A stretch of DNA of 64,000 nt from positions 13,998 through 77,997 of the forward strand of contig QWPW01000013.1 of assembly GCA_003671025.1 (NCBI GenBank). The letters run 5' to 3'. Of the stretch, positions 3,642 through 20,165 are shown piece after piece (the stretch's first letter is position 1; each line of letters begins with the position of its first letter). Source of the DNA: Planctomycetota bacterium. Lineage in GTDB: Bacteria > Planctomycetota > Phycisphaerae > Phycisphaerales > SM1A02. The position numbers and the translations under genes were made by a program. The notes below the pieces were generated by a model that was given only the letters and a program-made list of their open reading frames with translations, had not been told where the DNA came from and made no database searches.

Positions 3642-3714
3642 AAGGGTCGCGAGTGTACCGATCACAGTGGTCGCGTCGCGCGCAACGCCGAGGCCTCAAA
3701 GGTACTCTTGCGCC

Positions 3715-6012
3715 ATGATTACTCCTCTCGTTGCATGGATGCTGGCGCCCATCGTGATGCCAGTGGTGATGAACGTGCCGCCAAGTGCGCTGCCCGAAGT
3801 GATCGTCGATCGCGACAACATCGTGGTGCGCGAGAGTTGCACGCTCCGATTTTCCAAGAGCATCAGCGATGACGATGGAAACGGCGTCGTTCATATTGAG
3901 GGCGATGGAATCACCGTTGATCTCGGCGCGGGCACGCTCGCATCGAGCGCAGACGCGGCGACTCCCGAGAAGTTCAGCGGCATGGGCATCGTGCTGCGCG
4001 CGAAGAACGTGACGCTGCGCAACGGAGCTGTGCGCGGGTTCAAAGTGGCCATCTCAGCCTCCGCATGCGATGGCAGCACCTTTGAACAACTCAATGTCTC
4101 GGGCAACTACGCGCAGCGATTGCTCTCCACGTTCGAAGCGGAAAACTCGCAGGATTGGCTGTTTCCCCACCAAAACGATGAAGGCCAATGGGCGACGCAA
4201 CATGGCGCGGGACTCTCGGTGAGCAACGCCTCGAAGGTGGTGCTGCGTCAGATCACCAGTCACGCGACGCAAAATGGAATCTTGCTTTCGCGGGTGGTCG
4301 ACTCGCAAATCTACGACAACGACTGCTCGTTTCTTTCTGGTTGGGGCTTGGCCATGTGGCGCTCGAGTGGTAACACGATCTGTCGCAACAACTTTGACTT
4401 CTGTGTGCGCGGCTACTCGCACACGGTCTACAACCGTGGGCAGGATTCTGCGGGAATCCTGCTGTTTGAGCAGTGCAGTGAAAACATCATTGCCCTCAAC
4501 AGCGCCACGCATTGCGGTGATGGCGTGTTTGCATTCGCCGGTCGCGAGGCGCTTGGCGAGACGCCCGCGCCCATGGACGCAAGCGATGCGAGTGATCCCA
4601 AAGCGTGGTATCGCACTCGTGGAAACAACTTCAATCAGTTCATCGGGAACGATCTCTCGTGCTCAGCAGCGCACGGATTGGAGTTGACGTTTTCCTTCAG
4701 CAATCGCATCGAGAAGAATCGTTTCGAGAGCAACGCGATCTGCGGCATTTGGGGCGGATATTCGGCGCAAACGCGCATCGAAGACAACGACTTCGTCCGT
4801 AACGGCGATGCCGCGAGTGGTGGCGAGCGCGGCGGAATCAACATCGAGCACGGGCGCGAGAATCTCATCCTCGCGAATCACTTCGAGTCCAACGCGGCGG
4901 GCGTCGTGTTGTGGAACGACGTCGACGAAGCGCTTTCCAAAACGCCTTGGGCCAAGGCCAATGGCACGGATTGCTCGGGAAACAAAGTGGTTTCCAACAC
5001 CTTTACCAAAGACAAGGTTGGTATCGAGTTGCGCGAGGCGCGCGACACCGTGCTCGCCGCCAACACCTTTGTCGAAGTCGCCGTGCCCTTGCTCGAGCAG
5101 CGCACCGAGGGCACTCAGCAGCACGACGATGTGTCGTTGATCGCGGCCATCAGCGCCGCGTCGCCAACTGCCGAAACGATTGTGGCGAGCTTGCCTGGTT
5201 CGCGTCAGGCCGTGGGTATGCGCGAGAAGACGCGCGGACGATTCAACATCCTGATGGAGCGATACGGGCCCTATGCGTTCGATGCGCCGCGCTTGGCGCG
5301 CACCAATTCGTCGCAAGAGAAAGCCGACTATCGCACGCTCGGCTTTACCAACATCGTCGGTGTGGACATTGTGGGTCGCGGGCCCGTGCGCATCTTGTGG
5401 GGCTCGACCGAGTCCACGGTGCGCGTCATCGCCGAGGACACCAACTTTGTCACGCCCTACGAATTGATCGTGCGCGACAACCAACGACACAGGTGGATTT
5501 ACCGCGACATCCTCGCGCCCGTGGATTGGACGTTGCGCCTCTTCGCGACCACCGGCGATCCATTGACCGACCCTGCGTCGGTCGCGCGCGACGGTGCGAG
5601 CGCGAGCGCGATTGAGTTTACGACGCGCTCGCTTAACTTCGATTTCGGCGCGGGCACGCCTGGCAGCGTGATCGACGAACCGAAGGTGCGCGACTCGGGC
5701 CTCGGCGCGGATCACTTCGGCATGATCGCCAAGGCAAATCCCACGTTTTTGGCGGGAAAATACGCGATTGTGATCACCAGCGACGACGGCATTCGCCTCA
5801 AGGTCGACGGCAAAGTCGTGCTCGAGCATTGGGATCGCCACACTCCCACCGCCGATCGATTCGTGGTCACATTGACCGAGCCGCGCCCCGTGCCAATTGA
5901 AATTGAGTGGTTCGAACTTGACGGAAATGCGACATTCAAGGTGCATTTCGAAAGCGTGGAACCAGACATTCCCGATATGGGGCAGAGCAAGCGTTCAACA
6001 CGAATGAATTGA
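3715..6012 (+). CDS. Secreted right-handed beta-helix repeat protein with C-terminal PA14 domain (putative glycan-active enzyme)
   Basis: The ORF-track start at 3388 overlaps thrS; the in-frame ATG at 3715 gives a hydrophobic N-terminus MITPLVAWMLAPIVMPVV. Repeated N-x-I/F-x-x-N-type parallel beta-helix turns (NNFDFCVRG, NRIEKNRFESN, IEDNDFVRNG, ILANHFESN). The C-terminal segment GKYAIVITSDDGIRLKVDGKVVLEHW..FELDGNATFKVHFE is PA14-like. Confidence 0.6.
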   Translation: MITPLVAWMLAPIVMPVVMNVPPSALPEVIVDRDNIVVRESCTLRFSKSISDDDGNGVVHIEGDGITVDLGAGTLASSADAATPEKFSGMGIVLRAKNVTLRNGAVRGFKVAISASACDGSTFEQLNVSGNYAQRLLSTFEAENSQDWLFPHQNDEGQWATQHGAGLSVSNASKVVLRQITSHATQNGILLSRVVDSQIYDNDCSFLSGWGLAMWRSSGNTICRNNFDFCVRGYSHTVYNRGQDSAGILLFEQCSENIIALNSATHCGDGVFAFAGREALGETPAPMDASDASDPKAWYRTRGNNFNQFIGNDLSCSAAHGLELTFSFSNRIEKNRFESNAICGIWGGYSAQTRIEDNDFVRNGDAASGGERGGINIEHGRENLILANHFESNAAGVVLWNDVDEALSKTPWAKANGTDCSGNKVVSNTFTKDKVGIELREARDTVLAANTFVEVAVPLLEQRTEGTQQHDDVSLIAAISAASPTAETIVASLPGSRQAVGMREKTRGRFNILMERYGPYAFDAPRLARTNSSQEKADYRTLGFTNIVGVDIVGRGPVRILWGSTESTVRVIAEDTNFVTPYELIVRDNQRHRWIYRDILAPVDWTLRLFATTGDPLTDPASVARDGASASAIEFTTRSLNFDFGAGTPGSVIDEPKVRDSGLGADHFGMIAKANPTFLAGKYAIVITSDDGIRLKVDGKVVLEHWDRHTPTADRFVVTLTEPRPVPIEIEWFELDGNATFKVHFESVEPDIPDMGQSKRSTRMN

Positions 6013-6628: not shown

Positions 6629-6664
6629 TGCGTTCAGACTTGCGTTCAGATTTGCGTTCAGATT
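6629..6664. repeat. 12-bp tandem repeat x3 (TGCGTTCAGAYT) spanning the frr stop codon
   Basis: Units at 6629-6640, 6641-6652 and 6653-6664. On the minus strand each unit carries an in-frame TGA (6658, 6646, 6634). Confidence 0.9.
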
Positions 6665-7224
6665 TCCTCGACCTCAGCGCACTTTTTCGTACACAGCGCC
6701 TCGACTTGCTCGCAGTACTTCTTGGTGAGTTCGTCGATGTCGTCCTTTGACGTCTTCGCGGAGTCTTCCGAAATCGGATGTTTCTTATCCGCTTCGAGCG
6801 CGTCGATCGCTTTGTTGGCGTCGCGTCGCTCGTTGCGGATCGAGACCTTCGATTCCTCAGAGAGCTTCCTCACCTGAAGCACCAACTGCTTTCGGCGCTC
6901 CGATGAAGGCGCGGGGACATTGATGCGGATGATCTGTCCGTCGGACATGGGATTGAGTCCCAATCCCGAGGTTTCGATGGCGCGCACGATTTCGCTCTTG
7001 GAGCTGGGGTCGAAGGGCTTCACGACCAACTGGGTTGCTTCGGCAATGGTGATTGAGGCGAGTTCGCGCAAATCAGTGTGCGAGCCGTAGTAATCGACCT
7101 TGATGTACTCGAGCAGTGCAGTGCTCGCGCGTCCGGTGCGCAGGCCGCGCAATTCACGCTGCAAATACTCCGTCGAGCGTTGCATGCGTTCTTCCGTCTC
7201 GATGTTGATCGTGTCAAGGTCCAT
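6658..7224 (-). CDS. frr: Ribosome recycling factor
   Basis: 188 aa from the ATG at 7224 (MDLDTINIETEERMQRSTEYLQRELRGLRTGRAS..VDYYG..LVVKPFD..). The ORF-track N-terminal extension to 7539 was rejected. Confidence 0.9.
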   Translation of the reverse strand: MDLDTINIETEERMQRSTEYLQRELRGLRTGRASTALLEYIKVDYYGSHTDLRELASITIAEATQLVVKPFDPSSKSEIVRAIETSGLGLNPMSDGQIIRINVPAPSSERRKQLVLQVRKLSEESKVSIRNERRDANKAIDALEADKKHPISEDSAKTSKDDIDELTKKYCEQVEALCTKKCAEVEEI

Positions 7225-7342
7225 GGCGCCAATGTAACAGCCGCTCGGGGAAGCGATCATGTTCGAGTGATGCACGGCGCATCGAAGAAAACAGTTGAGT
7301 TCACGCCTTGACCGCGCGCGCGATTGTCGATGGAATGAACAC

Positions 7343-8068
7343 ATGTCCGCTTCCAAAGTTGCGCAACGACTCGTTCTCAAAATCAGCGGCGAGAGTCTGT
7401 CGCCGGTGGGGCAATTGGGAATCGACACCCAAGAACTCAAGTTGATCGCGGCCGAGATTTCGTCGGCCTGCGAACTCGGCGGACAAATCGCCGTAGTAGT
7501 CGGTGGCGGCAACATCATTCGCGGCGCACGGTTGGCCAAGGATGGAGTCGTCCATCAATCGACTGCGGATTACATGGGCATGTTGGGCACGATCATCAAT
7601 GGACTCGCGCTCAAAGAGGCACTCGAAGGAATGGGTCGGCCCGCGCGCGTGATGTCGGCGATCAACGTGCCCGCGGTGGCAGAGCCGTTCATTCGCGGCC
7701 GCGCAGTGAGCCATTTGGAAAAGGGCCGCGTGATCATTCTCGTCGCGGGAACGGGCAATCCATTCTTCACCACCGACACGTGCGCGAGTTTGCGCGGCAT
7801 TGAACTCAACGCCAGCGTGCTACTCAAGGCGACGAAGGTCGACGGCGTGTACACCGCCGATCCCAAGAAAGACCCAACCGCGACACGGTTTGATCGATTG
7901 ACTTTCGCGGAGGCGATCGAACGTCAACTCGGAGTCATGGATATGACCGCGCTCACCATGTGCATGGAGCACAATCTTCCGGTGTGCGTGTTTGACTACA
8001 AAGCCCCAGGAAACATTCGTCGCGTCGTCGCGGGTGAACGCATCGGCACGTTGCTGACGAGAGATTGA
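7343..8068 (+). CDS. pyrH: UMP kinase
   Basis: RLVLKISGESL...VVVGGGNIIRG...MLGTIINGLAL..ILVAGTGNPFFTTDTCASLRGIE..VDGVYTADP motifs. ATG at 7343. Confidence 0.9.
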   Translation: MSASKVAQRLVLKISGESLSPVGQLGIDTQELKLIAAEISSACELGGQIAVVVGGGNIIRGARLAKDGVVHQSTADYMGMLGTIINGLALKEALEGMGRPARVMSAINVPAVAEPFIRGRAVSHLEKGRVIILVAGTGNPFFTTDTCASLRGIELNASVLLKATKVDGVYTADPKKDPTATRFDRLTFAEAIERQLGVMDMTALTMCMEHNLPVCVFDYKAPGNIRRVVAGERIGTLLTRD

Positions 8069-8137
8069 TCAGTCCTTGATCAGTCCCTGATCAGGCTTTG
8101 ATCAGTCTCTGAGAGGACTTCGCCAATCCGTGATCAG
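8066..8137. promoter_or_regulatory. Phased TGATCAG repeat cluster (candidate operator / GATC cluster)
   Basis: TGATCAG at 8066, 8077, 8088 and 8099 (exact 11-bp phasing) and again at 8131. The first copy contains the pyrH stop codon; the cluster lies upstream of the vWA-ExbBD operon. Confidence 0.4.
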
Positions 8138-8274
8138 GCGTCGGTCATCGGTGGACCGTTCGCAACTAGAAATGTTGCGGGGACGGTCGCGTGATTTGCG
8201 CAACCTTCCGAAAACCCAGCGAGTCCGTAGAATCGCGGGCTCGCACTCTCGTATCTGGTCTTGTGCCTTTGACG

Positions 8275-9336
8275 ATGCCTCGCCGATCTTCGACTCCTAA
8301 CTCCTCCCCGGGGTCCATATTGGCGACACGCGACGCGCGTGCGGGTGAAACGTCGAGGGCCGATGAACTGCAACTAACTCCGCGCGAACGTGTGCATCGC
8401 GAACGGCAGCGCATTACCCGCGAGCGTTGGGTGCATCTGCTGCTGCTGGGCTTCGCGCTCTCGATCATCGTGCATGTCGGAATGATGGTGCAGTTGTGGT
8501 GGATTCGCGCGCCCGAACGCGTCGAGCAGGGTGTTCCTTCGATGGAGGTCACGCTGCAATCGCTGCCGCAAGCGGTGAACGTTTCAGACATGGTTGAGTT
8601 GCCGGATCCTTCGCCGCGACCAGCGGGACCGATCACTGCTGAGCTCGATCCTCTGCCCAATCTTTCCACGGATCTTGCGAATTCAAATCCAAACGCAAAC
8701 GACATCGGTGTCATTGCCGCGCCAGGCATCGGCGCGATTGTTGGCAGCGGCGGGCCTGCAAGTGGAATTGGAATCGGCAGTGGGAAAGGCGGCGGGGGCA
8801 CCAGTTTTTTCGGTGTCGGAGGACGCGGTTCGCGCTTTGCGTTTGTGGTCGATGTCTCAGGATCGATGGAACAAGACAATCGCTTAGGCACCGCACTGGC
8901 GGAACTCAAGCGATCCATCGGCGCGCTGCCTGATTACGCGCAGTTCTATGTGGTGTTGTTTTCCAACGATGCGATTCGTCCCGACTTCGAGGCCAACGGT
9001 TGGTTGCGCGCGACGCGTACCAACATCGCGCGCATGAAGACATGGATCGACACGCAGCCTTCGCGTGGCGGAACGTATCCCTATGACGCACTGAAGATTT
9101 GTTACACGCTGCCCCAGCCACCCGATGTCATCTTCTTTCTCACCGACGGTGAGATCCCCGTGGACTCTGCGGAGTTGGTGCGCGCTCTCGCGAAGGACGT
9201 CAAAGGGGATGTGGTGGTTAACACCATCGGATTTTCCAGCGAAGCAGGCAAAGACCAACTGATCGAGATTGCCCAGCAAAACCGCGGGGTTTTCCGCTTT
9301 GTGCCCGTGCGCGGTGGAACGCCGGTGACGCCATGA
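8275..9336 (+). CDS. Membrane-anchored von Willebrand factor type A (vWA/MIDAS) protein with TonB-like S-x3-H signal anchor
   Basis: Single TM WVHLLLLGFALSIIVHVGMMVQLWW, a Pro/Gly-rich linker, then vWA (FAFVVDVSGSM MIDAS start, ..GGTYPYDAL.., VIFFLTDGE). The start may be 8191 or 8275. Confidence 0.7.
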   Translation: MPRRSSTPNSSPGSILATRDARAGETSRADELQLTPRERVHRERQRITRERWVHLLLLGFALSIIVHVGMMVQLWWIRAPERVEQGVPSMEVTLQSLPQAVNVSDMVELPDPSPRPAGPITAELDPLPNLSTDLANSNPNANDIGVIAAPGIGAIVGSGGPASGIGIGSGKGGGGTSFFGVGGRGSRFAFVVDVSGSMEQDNRLGTALAELKRSIGALPDYAQFYVVLFSNDAIRPDFEANGWLRATRTNIARMKTWIDTQPSRGGTYPYDALKICYTLPQPPDVIFFLTDGEIPVDSAELVRALAKDVKGDVVVNTIGFSSEAGKDQLIEIAQQNRGVFRFVPVRGGTPVTP

Positions 9337-10721
9337 TTCCGGTGTTTTCCGTCGGACTTGTCGCGCTGTCATGTTCGTTCTCGCATGCAATCGCGTTGAC
9401 GCTGAATGCTGCGCCAGATGTGACCGTCGCGCGCCGCGGCGGTGCGACCGACATCACCGCGGCCACGGTGATTGCCGATGAACGCGGCGTGGAAGTGAAG
9501 GGGGCGAAGACGCCTGAGTTCATTCCGTGGGATGAAGTGCGCGCGTTCGTTGGTACGCCGCAACTGAGTGGAGCGCTCGTCAGTAGTCGAACTGATTCAC
9601 TCGCCGCGCAACTGGCGCTAGGCGAAGATCTCTGGCGCGCGCGCATTCGCGTTGCTCGCGGCGACTACGACTTCGCGCGTCCACTGCTGGCCAAACACTG
9701 GGCGCAACTGCGCTCGCTCGATGGACCAACGGCGTCGCTTGCCGCAGAGGCCATGCTGCTCTGCGCGTTGCATCACGAAAATCTTGGCGCGGCAGTTGTG
9801 CCTTGGATCGAAGTGTTGCGTCACCGTGCCAAGGGCGAACCCTCGCGCTTCGCGACCGAAGCGTCGCCCATCGATGCGCAAACAGGCTTGCTCAGCGCGC
9901 TCTCGCCATTCGTTCCCGCTGCGCGGCGAGTCGAACTTCTCGATGCGTGTCGCAGCGCGCAACATCGTTCGCAAGGCAATCCAACAGGCGCCGACGCGAC
10001 TGCGCTCGCCGTTGCGGCGCTGATGGAGCGTCTCATCATCGCGGCGGATGGAGGCGCCCTGAGTGCGCCTGCAGCTTCATCGAAGAGTTCTGCGGCGCCG
10101 CGCGAGACACCGCCGTCAACATCGCGAACAACATCGCGAACGACACCGAATTCAGCGGTGAATGCCACGATTCCAACGCAGAGCGTCTTGTTACTTCTTG
10201 ATTCAATCGTCTCGGCGACTGATCTCTTGACGCGCAATAAAGCGGTCGCAGAGTTTGATCGAGTCATGCCCGAACCGCCGACGTTTCTTGGCGCTTGGAG
10301 ACTGGCGGCGATTGGCACCAGCTCCGCGCGTGCGGCGCGAGCCACCGTTGGCGATGCACGAACGCAGGCGCTCGAGCGCGCGGCGATGGAACTGCTCGCC
10401 GTGCCTGCCGCCGCAATTGATCGCTCGGGATTGGTAGACGAATACGCCTTGGAAATGGCTGAGGCGCTGCTGCGCGAGTCGGGTGACGTCGCGTCGGCCG
10501 ATCAAGTCGCATCGGTGCGAACCAGCGGCGCAAACGGCAAACACTCCGATCGTCTGCGTCCGAGCACGGCGACGGGATCGACCACTCAGTCCTCCGCAGC
10601 ATCCTCTGCAGCATCGACTGCAGCATCGACTGCGCACACTTCGTTTGTCTCTTCGTCCGCAGTGGTGGAAAATTGCACCACGCATCGTTTCGTCGCGCGC
10701 CGACTCATGCGCATCACTTGA
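9333..10721 (+). CDS. Hypothetical secreted protein (Ala-rich, Ser/Thr-rich tail)
   Basis: 462-aa ORF whose ATG overlaps the vWA stop (ATGA at 9333). Signal-like N-terminus MIPVFSVGLVALSCSFSHA. No motif recognised. Confidence 0.5.
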   Translation: MIPVFSVGLVALSCSFSHAIALTLNAAPDVTVARRGGATDITAATVIADERGVEVKGAKTPEFIPWDEVRAFVGTPQLSGALVSSRTDSLAAQLALGEDLWRARIRVARGDYDFARPLLAKHWAQLRSLDGPTASLAAEAMLLCALHHENLGAAVVPWIEVLRHRAKGEPSRFATEASPIDAQTGLLSALSPFVPAARRVELLDACRSAQHRSQGNPTGADATALAVAALMERLIIAADGGALSAPAASSKSSAAPRETPPSTSRTTSRTTPNSAVNATIPTQSVLLLLDSIVSATDLLTRNKAVAEFDRVMPEPPTFLGAWRLAAIGTSSARAARATVGDARTQALERAAMELLAVPAAAIDRSGLVDEYALEMAEALLRESGDVASADQVASVRTSGANGKHSDRLRPSTATGSTTQSSAASSAASTAASTAHTSFVSSSAVVENCTTHRFVARRLMRIT

Positions 10722-10736
10722 ATTCGGTTTCATCCC

Positions 10737-11444
10737 ATGCAAATCATGTTCATTGACATTCTTGCGCAATCAGAATCAACGGGCGGCGGTTCGGCGCTCA
10801 AGTTCATCACTGGCGGCGGCATCATTGGCTACATCATCGTGGTGTTGTCGGTGGTCGCGGTCGCGTTCGTGCTCATTCACTTCGTGCAGATTCGCCGCGC
10901 GGCGTTGATGCCTGCGCATCGCGTGATCGCGGTGCGTGAGTTGGTGGAGCGCGGTGATTTAGAAGGCGCGTTGGAATACTCGACGCTTCCCGCGAATGAC
11001 TGTTACTACTTGCGTGTCATCGGTGCGGGACTGAAGCGCTTCTTGCGTTCGCCGTTTGGTGCCTTCGAAATCAAGTCCGCGATGGAAGAAGCGGGCGCCG
11101 AAGAAACCGCGCGTCTCTATCGCACCATGGATGTGATTTCGACCATCGGCTCGGTTGCGCCGCTGCTGGGATTGCTCGGCACTGTGCAAGGAATGATCGG
11201 CGCGTTCGACACCGTCGCCGACGGCGCCGCGAACAACGCGAACTACTACCAAGACCTCGCCTCCAACATTGCCATCGCGCTGATCACGACCTTTCAAGGA
11301 CTGGTGGTGGCGATTCCTTGCGTATCGGTCTACGGATATCTGCGCAATCGCGTCGACGCGCTGGCTGGCGAATGTGCTTCAAACGCCGAGGAAATCGTGA
11401 CTTTGGTCGAACGAGGCGCGCGCAAGAACCCACGCAGCGAATGA
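10737..11444 (+). CDS. exbB: MotA/TolQ/ExbB-family proton channel
   Basis: 235 aa with three TM segments. Conserved C-terminal core ..APLLGLLGTVQGMIGAF..IAIALITTFQGLVVAIPCV.. Confidence 0.85.
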   Translation: MQIMFIDILAQSESTGGGSALKFITGGGIIGYIIVVLSVVAVAFVLIHFVQIRRAALMPAHRVIAVRELVERGDLEGALEYSTLPANDCYYLRVIGAGLKRFLRSPFGAFEIKSAMEEAGAEETARLYRTMDVISTIGSVAPLLGLLGTVQGMIGAFDTVADGAANNANYYQDLASNIAIALITTFQGLVVAIPCVSVYGYLRNRVDALAGECASNAEEIVTLVERGARKNPRSE

Positions 11445-11472
11445 ATGTGATCGACCTTCGGAGATTCATGCC

Positions 11473-11895
11473 ATGAGGTTCAAGCAACCCAACTCAGCAC
11501 CGCGCGGCGTGCCCATCGACATGACACCGATGATCGACATCGTGTTTCAGTTGCTGATCTTTTTCTTAGTGACGTCACAGATGGCGGAGTCGTCACGCGC
11601 GCAACTCAACTTGCCCAAGGAGCAAGGTGAGAATGAAACTTCGACTGACAGCGCATCGTTCACCATCAACATCCAAGCGGACGGAACCGTGTTGATCAAC
11701 GACAACGTGGTGTCACTCGAAGCGCTTGATGTGTTGGTGGAAGAAGCGATCGCGCAGGCGGGCGGAGCGGAAAGACTCCAGCCCTTGGTGCGCGTTGATC
11801 GCACTTGTGATGCCGCGCGCCTCAATGAAGTGCTGACGCGCTTAGGCGCGCGCGGATTGCTGGCGATTCGCCTCGCAACCGAAAGGAGTCAGTGA
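11473..11895 (+). CDS. exbD: ExbD/TolR-family biopolymer transport protein
   Basis: 140 aa. N-terminal anchor IDMTPMIDIVFQLLIFFLV with the conserved membrane Asp, and a periplasmic domain. Confidence 0.85.
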   Translation: MRFKQPNSAPRGVPIDMTPMIDIVFQLLIFFLVTSQMAESSRAQLNLPKEQGENETSTDSASFTINIQADGTVLINDNVVSLEALDVLVEEAIAQAGGAERLQPLVRVDRTCDAARLNEVLTRLGARGLLAIRLATERSQ

Positions 11896-11896
11896 C

Positions 11897-12304
11897 ATGC
11901 GATTCAAACGCAAGGGTGGCGACCGCAAGCCCGAGCTCAATCTCGCTTCGATGATTGACGCGACATTTCTCTTGCTCTCCTACTTCATCTTCACTGCTGG
12001 CGCGGGCGCCAACGAGGCGAAACTCTCGCCCAATCTTCGCGTGCAAGAAGGCACGCAAGCGATGGATGACCTCGATCCGCAAGTGCTCGATGTCGTGAGT
12101 GTCGGCGGAGCGGTGGTGTTTCGACTGGGCTCGAACGAGTTGACGACTCGCGCAATGCTCACCGAAGCCGTGCGCGCGCTTCCCACCGAACAAGGCTTGT
12201 TTGTGCGTGTTCATTCCGGTGTCGATGTCGGTTCCGCTGCTGCGGCGATTCAAGTCGCGCGCGACGCGGGGTTCAAGGCGGTGACCTATGTGCCCGCAAA
12301 GTGA
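11897..12304 (+). CDS. exbD: ExbD/TolR-family biopolymer transport protein (second paralog)
   Basis: 135 aa; LNLASMIDATFLLLSYFIF retains the Asp. Starts 1 nt after the stop of the preceding exbD. Confidence 0.8.
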   Translation: MRFKRKGGDRKPELNLASMIDATFLLLSYFIFTAGAGANEAKLSPNLRVQEGTQAMDDLDPQVLDVVSVGGAVVFRLGSNELTTRAMLTEAVRALPTEQGLFVRVHSGVDVGSAAAAIQVARDAGFKAVTYVPAK

Positions 12305-12323
12305 TGACGCGCACAACTTGAAT

Positions 12324-15167
12324 ATGTCGCCGAGCGCATCTCGCGCGGGGAACGCGCAGCGCACTCGAACCAGCGTCACTCGACTGTGCACACGCATGTT
12401 GCTGTGCGCGACGATGTTGTTGCCGAATGCTTGGGCGCGCGCCGACGACTTGTTGGACTACTTGCAAGCGCAGGGACTTGACTCGCTCGCGGCGCTGCGC
12501 ATCGAAGAATTGGTCGAAGCAGCGACTGGTGATGAACGAGACCAACTGTCGGATGTGCTCGCGGATCTGTACACGCGCATGCTCGACGCCAACAGCGATC
12601 CGCGCGCGCAATCGAAACTACTTGCGCGCGCCGACGCGATTGCTGCGGGCACGAGCGCCGCAAGTGACGCGAATCGGCTTTCGACTTCCAAGCGTGATCG
12701 TCTGCGCATCGCGGCGGCGCGCGCGCGTTATCGCGATGCCGCGAGCGTCGCTGAACGTATTCGTGCGGGAAGCGCCCTCGATCCTGCAGCGAGCATCGAG
12801 TCGTTGGGTGCGCAAGCGGACGAGCTGATGCAAGTCGCGCAGCGCGCGGATAAGCGCGCGACTGAACTCAATCGTCGCTTCGATCGCGAGTCGGGACTCG
12901 GGCGCGATCTTCTCGCCGAGGAGATCGACGGTGAGCGTGGTTGCGCGGGACAAGCGCGATTTCTCGCCGCGTGGAGCTTGCTCTATCGCGGATTTCTCGC
13001 GAAAGATCGCGGCGACAGTGAACGCGCCGAAGCGTTGTTCGCAGCGTTGCTCGGCGCGCGCGACGGCAAACTCACGCCCGCCGAAGTATCCGAAGACCTG
13101 CGCAGAGATGAGGCGTACGCAGCGGCGATCTTGGGATTAGCCTTGGCCAAGGCGCGCATCGCGGGGTATTCGGAATCTGTGCGTTGGCTCGCGTTGCTGG
13201 ATTCGCCGCAGACGCACCCATCACTGCGCGATTCGGTGCCGGGATGGTCGATGGTCGCCGCGCTCGATGCGCGTGCGTTCAAGCAGGCGCGTGATGCGCT
13301 GGCTGCGCTCGCGTCGCATGACGACGCCGCCAACTGGGCGCGCGTTGCCGTGGCGCGTGCGATTGAAGACGGAGGCAGCGATGCTCAAGCGAAGTTGCTC
13401 GCGCGCGAAGGCATCGCGCTGCTCGCGGCGCAACGTGATCTTCCCGCGGTGCGCGAGTTGGTCGCGCGTTACGGCGAGGGCATTCTCGGTGAGGATGAAT
13501 CGACGGCGAACTCAGGCGCGGGCTCTGGCACAGGCTCGGGTGCAGGTTTCGTCGCGCGCTATGTGCGAGCGGTGCGACTCTTCGATGATGCGCAACGCGC
13601 CATGACGGAGGCAGGCGAGGATCCCGCAAAATTGGACAGCGATGCAGTGCGTGCGCCCGCCGAGGCCGCCGCTGCGGCGCTGGCAACGGCGCTTGAAGCA
13701 TCTGATGTCGACGCGTATCCCGCGGCGAAAACCGAATGCACACTCATGCGCGCGTTGAGTGTGCGTGCCGCAGGTCATGGCGCCGATGCCGCACCATTGT
13801 TTGATGCAGTGGCCGCGATCAGCGTGGGAGTCAAAGCAGAACAGGCTTCATTTCTCGCGATTGCCGCACTTGACGATGCGCGGCGAGGCACCACCGATGT
13901 GGCAACGCAACAAGCACTTGAGCGAGCGCTGGCCACGCGCATCGAGCAGTTTCTCGCGCGATTTCCCGGAAGCGAGCACGTGCCCACACTCTTAGTGCGC
14001 CGCATCGCCAGCAGCGATGATCCCAACGTCGACGATGTTGAACGATTACTCATGGTGCCCAGCGAAAGCCCAGAGTGGCTCGCATCGCGCAAGCAGGCGC
14101 TCGGTGGTCTGTACCGCGCCTTTCGCGGCGGCAACGCTCCGCGTGCAGACACCGCGCGTCGCTATCTCGCAGTGCTCGCCGAGTTGCCGCGTGAAGATGG
14201 CACTGGTCTACCTGCGGGCAGTTCATCCATTGCGCGTCAAGCACTCGAGGTTGTGCTCGCGCCCGAGGTTCGCGATAGCTCCCTCGCGACCAAGTTGATT
14301 GCGGCGCTTGAAGCAAGCGCGGCGCAGGGTGATTTCGATATGAGCGAGGCCGATGAAGAGATTGCCTATCGCCGCTTGCAACTGGCGATTGAGCTCGATC
14401 ACTTTGCCGATGTTGCCACGTTGTTGTTGCCCTTTGAAAAACCAGAGGCCACACCGATCTGGGCTGACGCAGGGCTGCGATTGGCGCTGCGCACCGCCGA
14501 ATCAAAGCGTCGCGCTGCGCCGATGGACGCGCCCGCGCGCGCAGGATTTGTCACAAGTGTTGTGCGTGCGGGTGATGCGATTTTGGCGCGCGAAGGCGGC
14601 ATCAACGCCGCGCTCAAATCAAAGGACGCAAGCGCGATGCAGCAAATCGCGCGCATCACGATTGATGCACGCGTGGAATTGGTGCGCTCGTCGGGTGATG
14701 CGGCGCAAGCACGCGCGAGTTTGTTGTTGACTGAAGCACTGCTCGCACAATCTCCCCGCGACGCGGCGTTGCTGCGCGCGGGAGCAATGTTCGCGGAAAC
14801 CGCGGGCGACCTCTCTCGTGCCGCCGAACTCTTGCGCACCTTGGTGGGCGGACTTCCGTCACGCACGACGCCGTGGTTTGAAGCGAAGGTCGATCAGTTG
14901 CGCGTGCTCGCGAAGTTGGATCCAGCACGCGCACGCGCGGTGCTCACGCAATTCCGCACGCTCTATCCAGAACTCGGGCCGGAGCCGTATCACACGCAAG
15001 TGTTGGAGATTGAAAAGTCTCTGCCCGCAGCGGCGAGTCCTGCCGCACCAAGCGAGCCATCGACAAGCGAACCATCACCAACGGTTCCTGCGCCAAACGC
15101 TGCGGAATCAGGCGTTTCAGCAGCATTCGCGACGCACGCAGCAATGACGCGACGAGGCTCCGCATGA
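12324..15167 (+). CDS. Large Ala-rich helical-repeat (TPR-like?) secreted protein, function unknown
   Basis: Long ORF (track start 12288; ATG at 12324 gives basic n-region + LLCATMLLPNAWA). Ala/Leu/Arg-rich throughout with a Pro-rich C-terminus. No catalytic motif. Confidence 0.55.
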   Translation: MSPSASRAGNAQRTRTSVTRLCTRMLLCATMLLPNAWARADDLLDYLQAQGLDSLAALRIEELVEAATGDERDQLSDVLADLYTRMLDANSDPRAQSKLLARADAIAAGTSAASDANRLSTSKRDRLRIAAARARYRDAASVAERIRAGSALDPAASIESLGAQADELMQVAQRADKRATELNRRFDRESGLGRDLLAEEIDGERGCAGQARFLAAWSLLYRGFLAKDRGDSERAEALFAALLGARDGKLTPAEVSEDLRRDEAYAAAILGLALAKARIAGYSESVRWLALLDSPQTHPSLRDSVPGWSMVAALDARAFKQARDALAALASHDDAANWARVAVARAIEDGGSDAQAKLLAREGIALLAAQRDLPAVRELVARYGEGILGEDESTANSGAGSGTGSGAGFVARYVRAVRLFDDAQRAMTEAGEDPAKLDSDAVRAPAEAAAAALATALEASDVDAYPAAKTECTLMRALSVRAAGHGADAAPLFDAVAAISVGVKAEQASFLAIAALDDARRGTTDVATQQALERALATRIEQFLARFPGSEHVPTLLVRRIASSDDPNVDDVERLLMVPSESPEWLASRKQALGGLYRAFRGGNAPRADTARRYLAVLAELPREDGTGLPAGSSSIARQALEVVLAPEVRDSSLATKLIAALEASAAQGDFDMSEADEEIAYRRLQLAIELDHFADVATLLLPFEKPEATPIWADAGLRLALRTAESKRRAAPMDAPARAGFVTSVVRAGDAILAREGGINAALKSKDASAMQQIARITIDARVELVRSSGDAAQARASLLLTEALLAQSPRDAALLRAGAMFAETAGDLSRAAELLRTLVGGLPSRTTPWFEAKVDQLRVLAKLDPARARAVLTQFRTLYPELGPEPYHTQVLEIEKSLPAAASPAAPSEPSTSEPSPTVPAPNAAESGVSAAFATHAAMTRRGSA

Positions 15168-18100
15168 GTGCAACGCCCGATCATGAACCCTCACGCGCAA
15201 GCGCCGACGAGCCAACGCCAACTGCGTCCTCGATTGATCCGTCGCACGCGATCGTCGAAGCGGACCCGTTGCTTGACGAACGCAAACTGCTGGGACTTCC
15301 ACCAACGGGGCTGCTTTCGAGCGGACAGATTGAGGCTGCGATGGGCTTGCGCGCGCAAGACATTCGTCATCACCCGATGGGCGAGAGTCACAAGGCGCGC
15401 CGTGTGTTGCACCTTCTCGAAGCAGCGGCCGATCGACTGCAAGCGCAGTTGGCGCTTGCTGCTCGTGGGCCGCTTCATCCGCAAGCCGCGAAGCGCGTGG
15501 CCGCGCGATTGGCGGTGACCAACCGCACCGCGGCGCGGCTGATGGTGGTGTCGCCAGAGCAACGCAGTGCGAGCATGGGACAAGTCATCGCGCGCGACCT
15601 CACCGACTTCGATCGGCTTGCACTCGCGGTGTTGGTGGTGTCGCGCGGTTGGAATGCCACCAGCGCGAAACGACTCGCGTCGGTCGCCGATGAACACGGT
15701 GTCGCTGTCGCTGATCTCGAACGCGTCGTCGATGGACTGACACGATTTTTGGCAGAGGGCGGCGGAGTGCGCGGCAACATCGGCGACATCGGTGAAGGCG
15801 CGCGTTTGTCCATGCGTTCGCCGCGCGCGATGACGCGCATCGATGCTGCCGAGGACACCGTCGAGCGCGTGCTTCATCGACTCAACGATGCGCTGCGCGA
15901 TGAAGTCACCAGCGAGTCGCGCGCCTCGCAAGCGCGTTTAGCCCTTGTTTTTGGCTTGTTTGCGCTCTCTTGGATGGGCGTGCTCTCGTGGATCTTCTTC
16001 AGTCCGTCCTACGAGTCGCTCAGTGAGACTCCCATCGTGGACAATTCGACGATGCCTGCGCTCACCGCAGAAGACGCTGCTGTCGACGCGTCGAGCACCA
16101 TTGATGCATCATCATCCGCGCCGCTTCAGAGAGGCGCGAACGGCGAACTCATCGCACCCGTTGCCGCGCGAGCCGCGCCCGCGAAATTTCCTCGCGCGCC
16201 TGGATTCGTTCCGTCCGTTCCACCAGCTGGTCTGCTTGAGGCCGCGAGCGCTGGCGCAGATTGGGTCGCGGCGATTGAAGAGGTCATTCCCAAGTTGACC
16301 ACCAACGGCGGTCATATCGATGGTCTCAATCTCGCGCTCGTCGCGGATGCGTTGCAACGCGCTGGCGGCGCGTGGTGTGTGTCGATCGGATACCGCGCGG
16401 AAGTCACGCGCGCCTTTGTCACGCTCACGAAAACCCTGCGCAGCTCGGACGATTTCCGCAAACTCATGCAGGCTGTTCCTGGCAGTGATGTTCCGATCGC
16501 GAGTGCAAGCGCGAACGATGCGAAAATTCCCCAGTGGCAACGCACATGGATTCGCGCATTCGGCGCGGGCGTGTTGGCGACTGTGGCACTCGATTCCTCG
16601 CAACCTGCGTCGGCTTCGGCCGCGCGCGAAGAAATGCGCCTGCGCCTCATTCCGATTCCCAGCGGAGTTGTCACCGATCCCTTCGCCAGTGCGGCCACGG
16701 TGCAGATCGCGGCGGCTGCGCCTGCGTTGGCAGAGCAACTTGCGCTCGACACCGCGACACTCGAAGACGCCTCTCGCTTTGTGGAAGCGATGAATGCGGC
16801 GGCGACGACTTCTGCGCTGCGCACCCAAGCGGCGCTCGCCGCAGTAGACGCGTGCTTGCGCGCTCCCGGAGCACTCGACAAGCCCGGCGCGCTGGTCGAT
16901 TTCCTCGGTTACATGCTGCATCGACTTGATTTCAACAGTCGCGGCGCATCAAGCGAAACCGTGCGCAACGCGCTCGCTTCGTGGATGGTCGATCGTTCGA
17001 TTCCAGTCACGCGGTTGTGGGTGCTTACGAGTTTGCTTGACGCAGATATGAGCATCGCGTGGTACGGACCCGATCTTGTGCTCGCCACCAACGCCGATCT
17101 TCCCGCGCGCGAAGCGATGTCCGAACAGATGATCGCTGCGTTTCCCAAGCAGCAAGTCACCAGCATCGGCGAGGCCGTGTTGGTGGACGGAAAAACATTA
17201 GAGGAGTGGAAACTGCATGTGGCCAATGCGGACGCGCTACCCAATGACACTGCGTGCAACCGATTGCGCAACGCAGCGGTTGCGCTGGGACTCGCGCGTG
17301 TCGCGCGCGGCTTTGAGTTGGGCGAACCGAGCGTGGTCAAGCAAGCGCTCGATGATGTGATTGATTTGCAAAGTCGCAAGGATTCCGAGTGGTCTGCGTC
17401 ACCGACGGGTGAGCGCGCGGGACTGCCTGCATCAGGTGTTGGTGATGGCGAGTTCGCGACGGTGTACGCCACGCTCGGTCGTGATGCAGCGAAGCGAATC
17501 GATCAAATACGCGCGCTTGGTGCGCGTCCTGCAGCGGGCGATCTCGGTCCGATCGATGCGCGTGTCGTGGTCGCGGAAGCGCTGCGCGGAACGCCCTCGG
17601 AAGTGCGAGTCGCGGCGGCAACGGTGTTGGTCGATCGCTACCCCAATGGCCGCGAAGTGCTGCAAGCGACGCTCGATGCGTTGGTCGACGGCGGAGGATC
17701 ATCCGACGCCGCGATGTTTGTTTCGCAGTTGGTGGGTCAATCAGTCGCAGGGCGCGATTGGCAGTCTGAGGCGCGCGAGCGTTTGTTGGATCGCTTGACG
17801 CTGTTGGAGGATTCACAGTTGCACGCCGATGACAGCGCCGGACTCGAGGTTGCGCGCATGGCCAACGCACTCACCGCGAGATTCGTGCGCGCGGCGCCGA
17901 CAGCAAGCGGGCGACCAGATCGTTCGTTGATGCAGTTGGCCGACGCGCTGCGCGACGAAGCGGCCAGCAAGTTTCTCGCGGTTTCGTTTCCCCAATCGGT
18001 GGATGAAATCGAACGCCTCCGCGGCGCGCGTCGTTCACTCGCGACCAGCATCGCCCAGCGCATGGCCGCGGAAACCCCTGGAATTGTCGAGTATGCAGCG

Positions 18101-18283
18101 ATGTTGGTCGCCGCACGACAACCTGCGTTGCAATCGAAACTCGAGCCCATTCTCAGCGAAGGTCGACGCGCACGCACTGCGGCAGTGAGTGCAACCGAGC
18201 AAGTGGATGTGGATCTGCGCACGTTGCTCAAAGTGATCGCGCAGGGACTCGCTCCTCGCGCGACGGAAAGAGATGCGTCATGA
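15164..18283 (+). CDS. Large orphan protein with one internal TM segment, function unknown
   Basis: 1039-aa ORF with an ATGA overlap at 15164. Internal hydrophobic LALVFGLFALSWMGVLSWIFF, and an Ala-rich helical C-terminal two-thirds. Confidence 0.55.
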   Translation: MSATPDHEPSRASADEPTPTASSIDPSHAIVEADPLLDERKLLGLPPTGLLSSGQIEAAMGLRAQDIRHHPMGESHKARRVLHLLEAAADRLQAQLALAARGPLHPQAAKRVAARLAVTNRTAARLMVVSPEQRSASMGQVIARDLTDFDRLALAVLVVSRGWNATSAKRLASVADEHGVAVADLERVVDGLTRFLAEGGGVRGNIGDIGEGARLSMRSPRAMTRIDAAEDTVERVLHRLNDALRDEVTSESRASQARLALVFGLFALSWMGVLSWIFFSPSYESLSETPIVDNSTMPALTAEDAAVDASSTIDASSSAPLQRGANGELIAPVAARAAPAKFPRAPGFVPSVPPAGLLEAASAGADWVAAIEEVIPKLTTNGGHIDGLNLALVADALQRAGGAWCVSIGYRAEVTRAFVTLTKTLRSSDDFRKLMQAVPGSDVPIASASANDAKIPQWQRTWIRAFGAGVLATVALDSSQPASASAAREEMRLRLIPIPSGVVTDPFASAATVQIAAAAPALAEQLALDTATLEDASRFVEAMNAAATTSALRTQAALAAVDACLRAPGALDKPGALVDFLGYMLHRLDFNSRGASSETVRNALASWMVDRSIPVTRLWVLTSLLDADMSIAWYGPDLVLATNADLPAREAMSEQMIAAFPKQQVTSIGEAVLVDGKTLEEWKLHVANADALPNDTACNRLRNAAVALGLARVARGFELGEPSVVKQALDDVIDLQSRKDSEWSASPTGERAGLPASGVGDGEFATVYATLGRDAAKRIDQIRALGARPAAGDLGPIDARVVVAEALRGTPSEVRVAAATVLVDRYPNGREVLQATLDALVDGGGSSDAAMFVSQLVGQSVAGRDWQSEARERLLDRLTLLEDSQLHADDSAGLEVARMANALTARFVRAAPTASGRPDRSLMQLADALRDEAASKFLAVSFPQSVDEIERLRGARRSLATSIAQRMAAETPGIVEYAAMLVAARQPALQSKLEPILSEGRRARTAAVSATEQVDVDLRTLLKVIAQGLAPRATERDAS

Positions 18284-19104
18284 GACGACACACGCCCTCA
18301 CTCGGCTTCGTATTGATTGCGCTTAGCGTCATGCTCACGCTGACCGCGTCGCGCGCCATTGCCCAATCAACCGTGGCGATCTCGGAGCAGTGGAACGCGC
18401 GCTTGCTCGCACTGGATCCAGCACGACCAGCGGACTACTTCAACCTCGCCGAAGAAATCAGCGACGCATTTCCTGCGCAGGCGACTGGTGTTGCGGGTAG
18501 TACTGCGACGAATGCTGCGCAGAATGAGGCACAACGCGAACTGGCGCGGCAACTCTTCGCGCTCGCGGGCGCGTTGAACACGCCGATCTTTGGACGCAGC
18601 GCCATGCTGGCGATTAGTGAGTTGGCAATCTCAACGCAGAGTCGTGAGCGCGCGTTGGCCGCGGCAGAAATCGTGGGCGGCCGTGGTGAGAAAAAGAGCG
18701 TGTTTCGGCCGGAAAGCGCGCAGATTGAAGCGTTAGCGCGCGCCTTCAGTTTCTACCGCAAAGGAATGGGCACGAAGGCGTTGTCGGCACTGCGCCAGTC
18801 CGACGCCGACGCGCTGCTCGATGCGATCAGCGATGCGATTCCTGGTGGCGCGGCGGCGATGCGCGTCGAATGCAAGTCCATGCGCGCGAACACGCGCGTC
18901 TACCTCGATCCACAACACGAGCGCACGTTGATGCTCATCGAACTAGCACTTCGCCGCGGCGAGTTACGCGGCCTCGGTCTGGACATCGTGGTGCACGGTG
19001 ATCGCCCGCTCATCGAAATCGATCGCGACGATGTTGCGTCACTCTGGCAAATCGATCCCAAGCGCGTGTGGTGGCGTGATGGCGCGTGGAGCGCGAAGCA
19101 GTAA
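18280..19104 (+). CDS. Hypothetical secreted protein
   Basis: 274-aa ORF with an ATGA overlap at 18280. Signal-like LGFVLIALSVMLTLTASRAIAQS. Confidence 0.5.
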   Translation: MRRHTPSLGFVLIALSVMLTLTASRAIAQSTVAISEQWNARLLALDPARPADYFNLAEEISDAFPAQATGVAGSTATNAAQNEAQRELARQLFALAGALNTPIFGRSAMLAISELAISTQSRERALAAAEIVGGRGEKKSVFRPESAQIEALARAFSFYRKGMGTKALSALRQSDADALLDAISDAIPGGAAAMRVECKSMRANTRVYLDPQHERTLMLIELALRRGELRGLGLDIVVHGDRPLIEIDRDDVASLWQIDPKRVWWRDGAWSAKQ

Positions 19105-19181: not shown

Positions 19182-20165
19182 TCACTTCGCAGCGCGTAGA
19201 GATCGTTGCTTGGCGGCAAAGTCGAGGAACGCGCGTCGCTGTTGCGGCTCGAGCAGCGCGTAGACCTCGCGGTAGGCATCGCGCTGCATGGCGGGAGAAT
19301 CGTCGCCTGTGAGTTTGGCGAGAAACAGCGGTGTGAGCGCGGTGCGCACCTGTTCCGCTTGTGTTCCGCTGAGATCAAGTGTGCGCGCAAACACCTCAAA
19401 TTCAGCGGCGGCGAAGGCAATTTTCGCCTCGATGGCCTCTTTGAGCAGCATGCCCACGTGTTCGAGATCAAGACGAGTTCGGATCGCGAATTCAGTCCTA
19501 TCAGTTTGCCCGCCAGTTTGCGCGCCAGACTGCGCGACTTGTGCTTCGCGCACGAGGGTGTCGAAGTAGCGCCGCTCAAGTTCGCGCGCGTGTGCCACCG
19601 TGGTCGCGCGCACGCCGTCGGCGCGCTCGAACTCATCGAGAAAAACGCCTCGATCAAAGTAGGGTTTGAATGAGAGCAGCACGCGCACCAAGTCACTCAT
19701 CGCGCCGATGCGCACGAGGAGTTGCGCACTGGTGATGCGCGCCGAAACATTCTGTAGCGCGAAGATGCCGCGATAGTTTTTGGAAAGCAACGCATCAAAC
19801 GCAGCACTTCGCGCCGCGCTCACGCGTTCGAGTGCCTTTCGTTCCGCGTCGTTGAGCGCGTAGATTCCACGCGCGGCGTCCATCGCATCGAGCGCATCGC
19901 GCCCCGGCTGCGCACTTGCACGCACGATGCTGCCGGAAAAGTCTCGACGAACGATGGTGGGGCGAATCCGTCGCGTCGCTTCAATCGAAAGATCCACCGT
20001 TGGTCCAGCGAGAATGTCTCCGCGAATGGTGGATCCGTGGGTCTTCTCGCCCTCGTGCTCAGTCGGCACGATCGGCAGTGGAGCACCGCAACGCGAGAAG
20101 CTCGAGAGCGTGACAAGCAGCGAAATCACGGCGTTTTCAAGCATGTTTTGCGAGTGTACGCTCAC
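19182..20165 (-). CDS. Hypothetical protein
   Basis: 327-aa ORF with an alternative start at 20144 (MLENAVISLLVTLSSFS). Helical, with several L-x-x-x-Q-like segments; no firm family. Confidence 0.45.
   Translation of the reverse strand: MSVHSQNMLENAVISLLVTLSSFSRCGAPLPIVPTEHEGEKTHGSTIRGDILAGPTVDLSIEATRRIRPTIVRRDFSGSIVRASAQPGRDALDAMDAARGIYALNDAERKALERVSAARSAAFDALLSKNYRGIFALQNVSARITSAQLLVRIGAMSDLVRVLLSFKPYFDRGVFLDEFERADGVRATTVAHARELERRYFDTLVREAQVAQSGAQTGGQTDRTEFAIRTRLDLEHVGMLLKEAIEAKIAFAAAEFEVFARTLDLSGTQAEQVRTALTPLFLAKLTGDDSPAMQRDAYREVYALLEPQQRRAFLDFAAKQRSLRAAK

Follow-up and report, generated by a model that had tools for sequence, protein, structure and literature searches.

The operon described here comprises eight genes (g1 to g8) at positions 8191-19104 of a 64,000-nucleotide stretch of DNA, referred to as the window, from a freshwater planctomycete of the Phycisphaerales (GenBank assembly GCA_003671025.1, contig QWPW01000013.1). 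The genes form eight tightly packed open reading frames (ORFs), all on the + strand, and encode a protein with a domain of the von Willebrand factor A (vWA) type behind a TonB-like membrane helix (g1), a TolQ/ExbB-type channel subunit (g3), two ExbD/TolR-type subunits (g4 and g5) and four proteins of uncharacterised families (g2, g6, g7 and g8).

The genes are joined by ATGA stop/start overlaps of 4 nt between g1 and g2 (9333), g6 and g7 (15164) and g7 and g8 (18280), and by a gap of 1 nt between g4 and g5 (11896), with 15 nt before g3 and 28 nt before g4. These coordinates agree with those of an earlier note on the same DNA, made from the sequence alone, which had described eight same-strand ORFs joined in this way, except that the gap it placed before g6 depends on the choice of start codon. 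This gene may begin at ATG 12288, overlapping g5 by 17 nt, or at ATG 12324, 19 nt past g5, in which case the product has ~947 aa. The first of these codons arises from the conserved Tyr-Val codons (TAT GTG) that end g5, and many loci have it at an identical offset; either g6 truly starts there, with the overlap, or the codon is a by-product of the conservation of g5.

A predicted proton motor with two ExbD-type subunits

The channel subunit g3 (10737-11444, +; 235 aa) matches MotA_ExbB (PF01618) at 5.5e-28, and the two ExbD/TolR paralogs g4 (11473-11895, +; 140 aa) and g5 (11897-12304, +; 135 aa) match ExbD (PF02472) at 6.5e-22 and 1.2e-6, all three past the gathering scores. The identification of these genes as one channel and two paralogs retaining the membrane Asp, previously made from the sequence alone, is borne out by these matches and by the aspartates themselves (D22 of g4 and D21 of g5), which all 18 orthologs of g4 and all 18 of g5 retain. 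The orthologs of g4 and g5 form two separate, well-conserved groups, a pattern that speaks for a heterodimeric plug like that of AglQ/AglS. Set against E. coli ExbB and TolQ, g3 retains the pore Thr positions.

The best NCBIfam scores of g3 are 78 bits for tolQ (cut-off 221) and 59 bits for exbB, and the tolR score is 50 against a cut-off of 127. All three proteins fall far under the TolQ, ExbB, TolR and ExbD equivalog cut-offs, indicating that they are members of the family and not orthologs of the characterised systems.

A predicted transducer ending in a vWA domain

The first gene, g1 (8191-9336, +; 381 aa), encodes a variable basic cytoplasmic N-terminus followed by a transmembrane (TM) helix, a motor-box-like segment, a Pro/Gly-rich linker and a vWA domain, an architecture read from Pfam matches and ortholog alignments. 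Its start is ambiguous (GTG 8191 or ATG 8275) and its first ~60 codons are not conserved. The 381-aa product is recorded identically as P0100 in the protein collection searched, and the same sequence occurs on at least 24 metagenome contigs.

The sole hydrophobic segment of the protein, LGFALSIIVHVGMMV, spans aa 81-103 (8431-8499, +). It reads S91-x3-H95-x6-L102 (codons 8461-8463, 8473-8475 and 8494-8496), which corresponds to the first three positions of the SHLS register of TonB and TolA. Within the helix, S91 and H95 are the residues that never vary among 45 orthologs of 32-65% identity, and L102, seven residues past the His, is conserved at 90% or more in alignments of 15 and 28 relatives within the same identity range. 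A profile of g1 searched against 1.84 billion representative proteins recovered 1,539 representatives at E <= 1e-30. Among the top profile matches, 148 full-length sequences were taken as representatives of the family; all 148 have an N-terminal TM segment and the DxSxS motif, and 139 have SxxxH inside the TM segment. The earlier note had recognised the TonB-like S-x3-H spacing and had allowed that it could be a chance match; its retention across orthologs and family representatives argues otherwise, and the conserved Leu extends the likeness by a further position.

Some members of the family depart from this pattern. P0255 and P0284 lack the Ser and His and lie on contigs too short to show an adjacent motor, and P0328 and P0337, also on short contigs, have an N-terminal CxxC...CxxC zinc ribbon before the SxxxH helix. 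This ribbon is reminiscent of the one in the Myxococcus gliding protein GltJ.

Just past the helix is a conserved block (SMEVTLQSL in g1, 8539-8565, +; consensus PVSxEFAxLxExELT) that is also present in distant members of the family, for example as VELAIVTQQEL. Its position is that of the motor-box strand in TonB and TolA, and it is, as judged from sequence, motor-box-like. The linker that follows (aa 126-216, 8566-8838, +) is ~90 aa long and equivalent in position to domain II; an acidic part rich in Pro gives way to one rich in Gly, and an invariant GTSFFGV closes the linker. The C-terminal vWA domain (8839-9300, +; VWA_3 match at aa 217-370) matches VWA_3 at 1.3e-8, VWA at 2.4e-7 and VWA_2 at 6.9e-7, all past gathering scores. 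Its metal-ion-dependent adhesion site (MIDAS), of which only the start had been noted before, is complete and invariant, with D221, S223 and S225 in DVSGSM, T295 and D319. In agreement with the absence of a TonB C-terminus noted before, Pfam finds neither TonB_C nor TonB_N in g1 at E <= 0.1, and the scanned window ORFs of at least 200 aa contain no TonB_C, TonB-dependent receptor, TolB or OmpA/Pal.

Four families of probable partner proteins

The remaining genes had been described as orphans in which no motif could be named. This holds for family assignment, as g2, g6, g7 and g8 match no Pfam or NCBIfam family at the gathering cut-off, either in the window copies or in any ortholog, and sequence-profile searches of the PDB with the four proteins returned nothing significant. 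Profile searches with these proteins also gave no match to a Bat, TolA or TonB family. They are not featureless, however, as structural models and weak matches point to TPR-like or HEAT/ARM-like alpha-solenoids. Paralogy among them was considered and rejected, as hhalign comparisons of g2 with g6, g8 with g6 and g8 with g2 all gave probabilities below 1%.

The protein encoded by g2 (9333-10721, +; 462 aa), identical to the NCBI protein with locus tag DWI12_05975, appears to be secreted. Its AlphaFold2 (AF2) model, built on an alignment of 29 sequences with a mean predicted local distance difference test (pLDDT) score of 81.7, shows a signal peptide and, after it, a small beta domain of six strands (aa 30-73) that leads into a TPR-like solenoid. 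Foldseek comparison with the PDB gave weak TPR matches only (best E 0.1), and the orthologs have weak, sub-threshold TPR matches. A Ser/Thr/Pro-rich insert (aa ~245-280) and a low-complexity C-terminal tail (aa 411-462), both modelled with low confidence, are lineage-specific and missing from most relatives. An RGD sequence (aa 109-111; 9657-9665) lies in a loop between helices, with D111 invariant and R-x-D present in 6 of 17 orthologs; it was considered as a ligand for the MIDAS and set aside, as it fits an ordinary TPR 'GDYxxA' turn and is probably structural.

Downstream of the motor, g6 (12288-15167, +; 959 aa from ATG 12288) encodes a large, probably secreted, TPR-like alpha-helical protein, ~900-960 aa in length across loci. 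The window copy has no Pfam match; its orthologs weakly match TPR families, with no more than 5 of 18 matching any one family, and the PDB profile search returned a designed TPR protein at E 0.02 and nothing else. It is the best-conserved of the four in distant loci (E 1e-156).

The largest protein, encoded by g7 (15164-18283, +; 1039 aa), is predicted to span the inner membrane once. In its AF2 model (47 sequences; pLDDT 80.3, predicted template modelling score (pTM) 0.42), the helical domain on the cytoplasmic side (aa ~27-250) bears the invariant motif LTxFDR...GGWN. It is followed by a TM helix (253-279), and a disordered linker (280-350) then leads to the periplasmic solenoid (355-1039). 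The solenoid, of ~690 residues, is all-alpha and has only HEAT/ARM proteins as Foldseek neighbours (E >= 8e-3), and the cytoplasmic domain has no relative in the PDB or Pfam. A possible J-domain at the N-terminus (LLGLP...GQIEAAL...RHP) was rejected, as the PDB profile search returned no DnaJ or J-protein (best match vinculin, E 0.03) and Pfam was empty.

The last gene, g8 (18280-19104, +; 274 aa), belongs to an unnamed family of ~260-280 aa proteins with a signal-like N-terminus, consistent with secretion, and without Pfam or PDB matches. Neither g7, g8 nor their orthologs have anything of note in Pfam, even below threshold. The two are fused into one ORF, g8 forming the C-terminal end, in three separate lineages: L002 (2762-6421; P0062, 1219 aa), L042 (8492-12211) and L046 (16252-18594), suggesting by the Rosetta-stone argument that both proteins act together. 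The fused protein of L046 has just 780 aa and matches g7 weakly and g8 strongly. Taken together, g2, g6, g7 and g8 are best described as predicted helical-repeat scaffold proteins of four uncharacterised families.

Conservation and distribution

Screening one genome from each GTDB species gave 42 loci, whose titles are nearly all Phycisphaerales, Phycisphaeraceae, Planctomycetota or Planctomycetaceae, with a few from other taxa; by title, the carriers are mostly metagenome-assembled genomes from lakes, rivers and the ocean. The window, too, belongs to a metagenome-assembled genome, of a Planctomycetota bacterium. In a collection of 5.8 billion proteins, g7 has 64 homologs, and all those with a taxon label are assigned to Planctomycetota/Phycisphaera or simply 'bacterium'.

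Conservation of the gene order in relatives, which the earlier note had proposed as a check, was found throughout: in tblastn searches with the eight window proteins over 44 genome and metagenome loci, the order g1 to g8 is identical in every complete locus. It is kept even in marine and other lineages in which g7 is 24-28% and g1 34-40% identical, and the operon usually adjoins pyrH and frr. Five more loci, found by way of g1 relatives that rank low among the top 150 profile matches, have the same layout: a vWA protein, a protein of ~370-455 aa, ExbB, ExbD and ExbD, then proteins of ~900, ~780-1060 and ~300 aa. Profile hidden Markov models established homology to g2, g6, g7 and g8 in the three of these that reach past ExbB (L045-L047) and to g2 in L048. 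Overall, the gene order recurs in ~50 independent loci, indicating that the arrangement seen in the window is not due to chance.

Relation to published vWA force transducers

The earlier note had left open whether this architecture might be new. Its class has already been defined, computationally, as 'vWA force transducers' in section 8 of a recent study (Mol Biol Evol 2025; PMC12204202), which describes an SHLS helix, a disordered ~100-residue linker whose motor box is a beta-strand, and a vWA domain at the C-terminus in proteins of Proteobacteria, Planctomycetes, Verrucomicrobia, Bacteroidetes and Rhodothermaeota. In PVC (Planctomycetes-Verrucomicrobia-Chlamydiae) bacteria these genes are syntenic with tolQ, two heterologous tolR genes and a TPR gene. 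The SHLS motif mediates motor binding in cryo-EM structures of TonB and TolA, and in AlphaFold 3 models of that study's own examples the His of the helix contacts the pentameric motor from its outer side, as it does for TonB and TolA (PMC12204202).

The present locus shares with this class, as judged from its published description, the single TM helix with an SHLS-type motif, the C-terminal vWA domain, the adjoining tolQ-like and two heterologous tolR-like genes, and the TPR-type gene (g2 and g6 being TPR-like). The Pro/Gly-rich linker and the motor-box-like segment of g1, read from sequence pattern, may correspond to the published linker and motor box. It differs in gene order, as the vWA gene of the published Tichowtungia example lies downstream of TPR-tolQ-tolR-tolR, whereas here it comes first and is translationally coupled to the TPR-like g2, and in content, as three further conserved genes, g6, g7 and g8 (~2,270 codons), follow the motor. 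The text and supplement of PMC12204202 yielded no description of g6-g8, the g7 cytoplasmic domain or the g7-g8 fusion, and a recent review of Planctomycetes does not mention TonB, ExbB, Tol-Pal or vWA. The motor-plus-vWA core is therefore already described, and the locus is an expanded and reordered variant of it. Relative to the available text of the published account, the vWA-first order, the conserved g6-g8 with a membrane-spanning g7, and the deep conservation beside pyrH and frr are additional.

Proposed machine and its possible role

The operon probably encodes (we estimate a probability of about 0.6) a single envelope machine, passed on vertically among Phycisphaerales-type planctomycetes and made up of a motor, a vWA transducer and a scaffold. 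This reading supports the earlier proposal of a proton-motive-force-driven motor with a TonB-like partner that presents a vWA/MIDAS domain, the orphans serving as scaffold or output.

In such a machine, g3 and a g4/g5 heterodimer would make up an inner-membrane stator of the TolQ/ExbB type, driven by protons, for which a 5:2 stoichiometry and rotation may be expected by analogy with the solved Ton and Tol motors. The g1 protein would be the equivalent of TonB or TolA: its helix, with Ser91, His95 and Leu102 as contacts, would dock against the outer face of the ExbB ring, the conserved strand past the helix would engage the ExbD periplasmic domains, and the flexible linker of ~90 residues would pass force or tension to the vWA domain. 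These steps draw on motif identity and on the published AlphaFold 3 models of the same family (PMC12204202). The metal site of the vWA domain may grip an acidic residue of a partner in the fashion of an integrin I-domain, giving a force-bearing bond. The platform or target of this hook would be provided by g2, g6 and g8 in the periplasm together with g7, anchored in the inner membrane; the gene fusion suggests that g7 and g8 bind each other, and the topology of g7 that it could relay between cytoplasm and periplasm.

The output of the machine is possibly a Tol-like housekeeping function, namely the tethering or remodelling of outer envelope layers during growth or division, although we put this forward tentatively. 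It is favoured because of the core-genome position beside pyrH and frr, the presence of the operon in every complete relative examined and the reported lack of Pal, the gene for which is recorded as absent from Planctomycetes in the supplement of PMC12204202. The operon resembles Tol-Pal in its proton-driven TolQR-type stator, its transducer with an SHLS-type helix followed by a motor-box-like segment, the presence of a TPR protein in the operon (CpoB in Tol-Pal) and its core-genome, housekeeping character. It differs in that TolR occurs as a pair of paralogs, TolA domain III is replaced by a vWA domain, and TolB and Pal are absent from the operon. Large solenoid proteins are added, as is a bitopic protein part of which is predicted to lie in the cytoplasm.

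Several observations weigh against this interpretation. The fourth position of the SHLS register is Arg in g1, not Ser, and the TM3 Glu of E. coli ExbB and TolQ is replaced in g3. The solenoid assignments are AF2 models with weak Foldseek matches, none of them below 1e-3, and the pTM of the g7 model is low. The operon contains no gene for an outer-membrane barrel or lipoprotein that could form the far end of the force path, and the Tol-like role is a preferred guess, based solely on where the operon lies in the genome, how widely the clade carries it and the reported lack of Pal. For the class as a whole, which so far stands as a computational prediction, no deletion phenotypes are known (PMC12204202).

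TonB and TolA were long the only known carriers of inner-membrane proton energy across the periplasm. A metal-dependent vWA 'hook' would be a third end domain and would widen the TonB/TolA principle, so far as a prediction only. The locus described here is a clean and deeply conserved version that comes with probable partners, the four uncharacterised families, one of which spans the inner membrane, and its eight components offer experimenters a defined, testable parts list. Planctomycetes lack FtsZ and Pal, and their mode of division is unexplained (PMC5147048); if the operon does encode an envelope or division machine, it bears on this question. It is conceivable, as a speculation we consider improbable, that in Phycisphaerae the module takes the place of Tol-Pal and of a portion of the absent divisome as a proton-powered, integrin-like device, with g7 taking a cytoplasmic cue and a catch-bond vWA hook pulling the outer layers in during FtsZ-independent binary fission. 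Should it prove to be an adhesion or uptake device instead, it would still provide the first defined context for what a vWA transducer pulls on.

Alternative interpretations

A surface adhesion or gliding machine following the logic of Agl-Glt, in which the motor moves the vWA hook along a trans-envelope track of TPR and solenoid proteins leading to a surface adhesin, is unlikely but has the most in its favour among the alternatives. The cytoplasmic domain of g7 could take positional cues, and the zinc ribbon of some g1-family members is shared with GltJ. One TolQ with two differing TolR proteins is the AglR/AglQ/AglS pattern, and Agl-Glt of Myxococcus xanthus has, like the present operon, one TolQ-like and two TolR-like proteins, many TPR proteins and a vWA domain (PMC11761067, PMC9946355), the last in the adhesin CglB (PMC9946355); a gliding role was also suggested for vWA transducers in PMC12204202 itself. 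In Agl-Glt, however, CglB is an outer-membrane lipoprotein, GltG and GltJ have TonB-type C-termini and there are barrels (GltA/B/H), whereas Pfam, NCBIfam and sequence inspection of the eight operon products revealed neither a TonB_C domain nor a barrel nor a lipobox, and the vWA domain of g1 is tethered to the inner membrane and not exposed at the surface. The origin of most carriers, lake, river and ocean metagenomes by title, also speaks against gliding, and a core-genome site beside pyrH and frr is unlike an accessory motility island. Import in the manner of Ton, with the vWA hook opening or pulling an unconventional outer-membrane gate or fibre so that macromolecules enter the periplasm, appears less likely still. 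Planctomycetes take polysaccharides into the periplasm by an uncharacterised route, and genes for a porin of the OprB type, a beta-helix/PA14 protein and a sulfatase lie in other parts of the window. The topology of g1 is TonB-like, and the operon shares with Ton the stator family, the S-x3-H anchor and the Pro-rich linker. It differs in that the end domain of the transducer is a MIDAS-bearing vWA and the scanned ORFs of the window have neither a TonB C-terminal domain nor a TonB-dependent transporter, an absence that counts in favour of this reading. Against import, a receptor gene is linked to the operon in none of the ~50 loci, and the operon has no nutrient-related regulator or substrate-binding gene and has housekeeping neighbours.

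Two further readings would remove the force coupling or place the motor in another context. Bat operons (BatA-E, MoxR, DUF58) also pair membrane-anchored vWA proteins with TPR proteins, so that g1 and its partners might form a stress complex of the aerotolerance type that merely neighbours an unrelated ExbBD motor. This seems very improbable, as Bat operons have no motor and, in Pfam and NCBIfam searches, neither the eight genes nor their flanks encode a BatA N-terminal domain, MoxR ATPase, DUF58 or BatD. Moreover, the motor genes lie inside the conserved block in every locus, and without a motor the invariance of the SHLS-type helix would have no reason. A Zorya-type anti-phage defence system, which combines a proton-driven 5:2 stator with large accessory proteins, is the least probable reading of all: PADLOC defence models gave 0 matches for the eight proteins, the stator is of the ExbB/ExbD and not the MotA/MotB type, and the locus is fixed beside pyrH and frr over deep divergence instead of lying in a variable island. 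The envelope machine with a vWA transducer remains the preferred reading.

Operon borders and other features of the window

The operon is bordered upstream by pyrH (7295-8068, +) and frr (-), and downstream by a convergent orphan of 327 aa followed by cystathionine-pathway genes. The two upstream genes are divergent in the clade of the window (6658-8068) and co-directional in a distant clade (L029-L043), suggesting a small inversion right at the upstream border. The 327-aa orphan (19182-20165, -) has no Pfam match, and a homolog lies between g8 and the CBS/PALP gene in just four relatives (L007, L009, L012 and L025), which points to a variable insertion at the end of the operon.

Promoter and terminator scans were uninformative, giving no promoter-like site and 9 terminator-like sites where 13 were expected, and tRNA and Rfam scans of the window returned no match. 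The sequence TGATCAG occurs six times within 72 nt (8066-8137) between pyrH and g1, and 13 times in the whole 64-kb window, where ~10 copies are expected by chance. This array was considered as a conserved operator and rejected, as it is missing from the equivalent region of ~40 related loci and is therefore lineage-specific.

Four long ORFs on the - strand have no Pfam family at E <= 0.001: 37650-38921 (423 aa), 39072-41267 (731 aa), 46525-48021 (498 aa) and 59523-61784 (753 aa). Elsewhere in the window, and without an evident link to the operon, an OprB-type porin (40-1440, -), an 874-aa NosD/beta-helix protein with a PA14 domain (3388-6012, +) and a sulfatase (61781-63172, -) are typical planctomycete surface and glycan genes.

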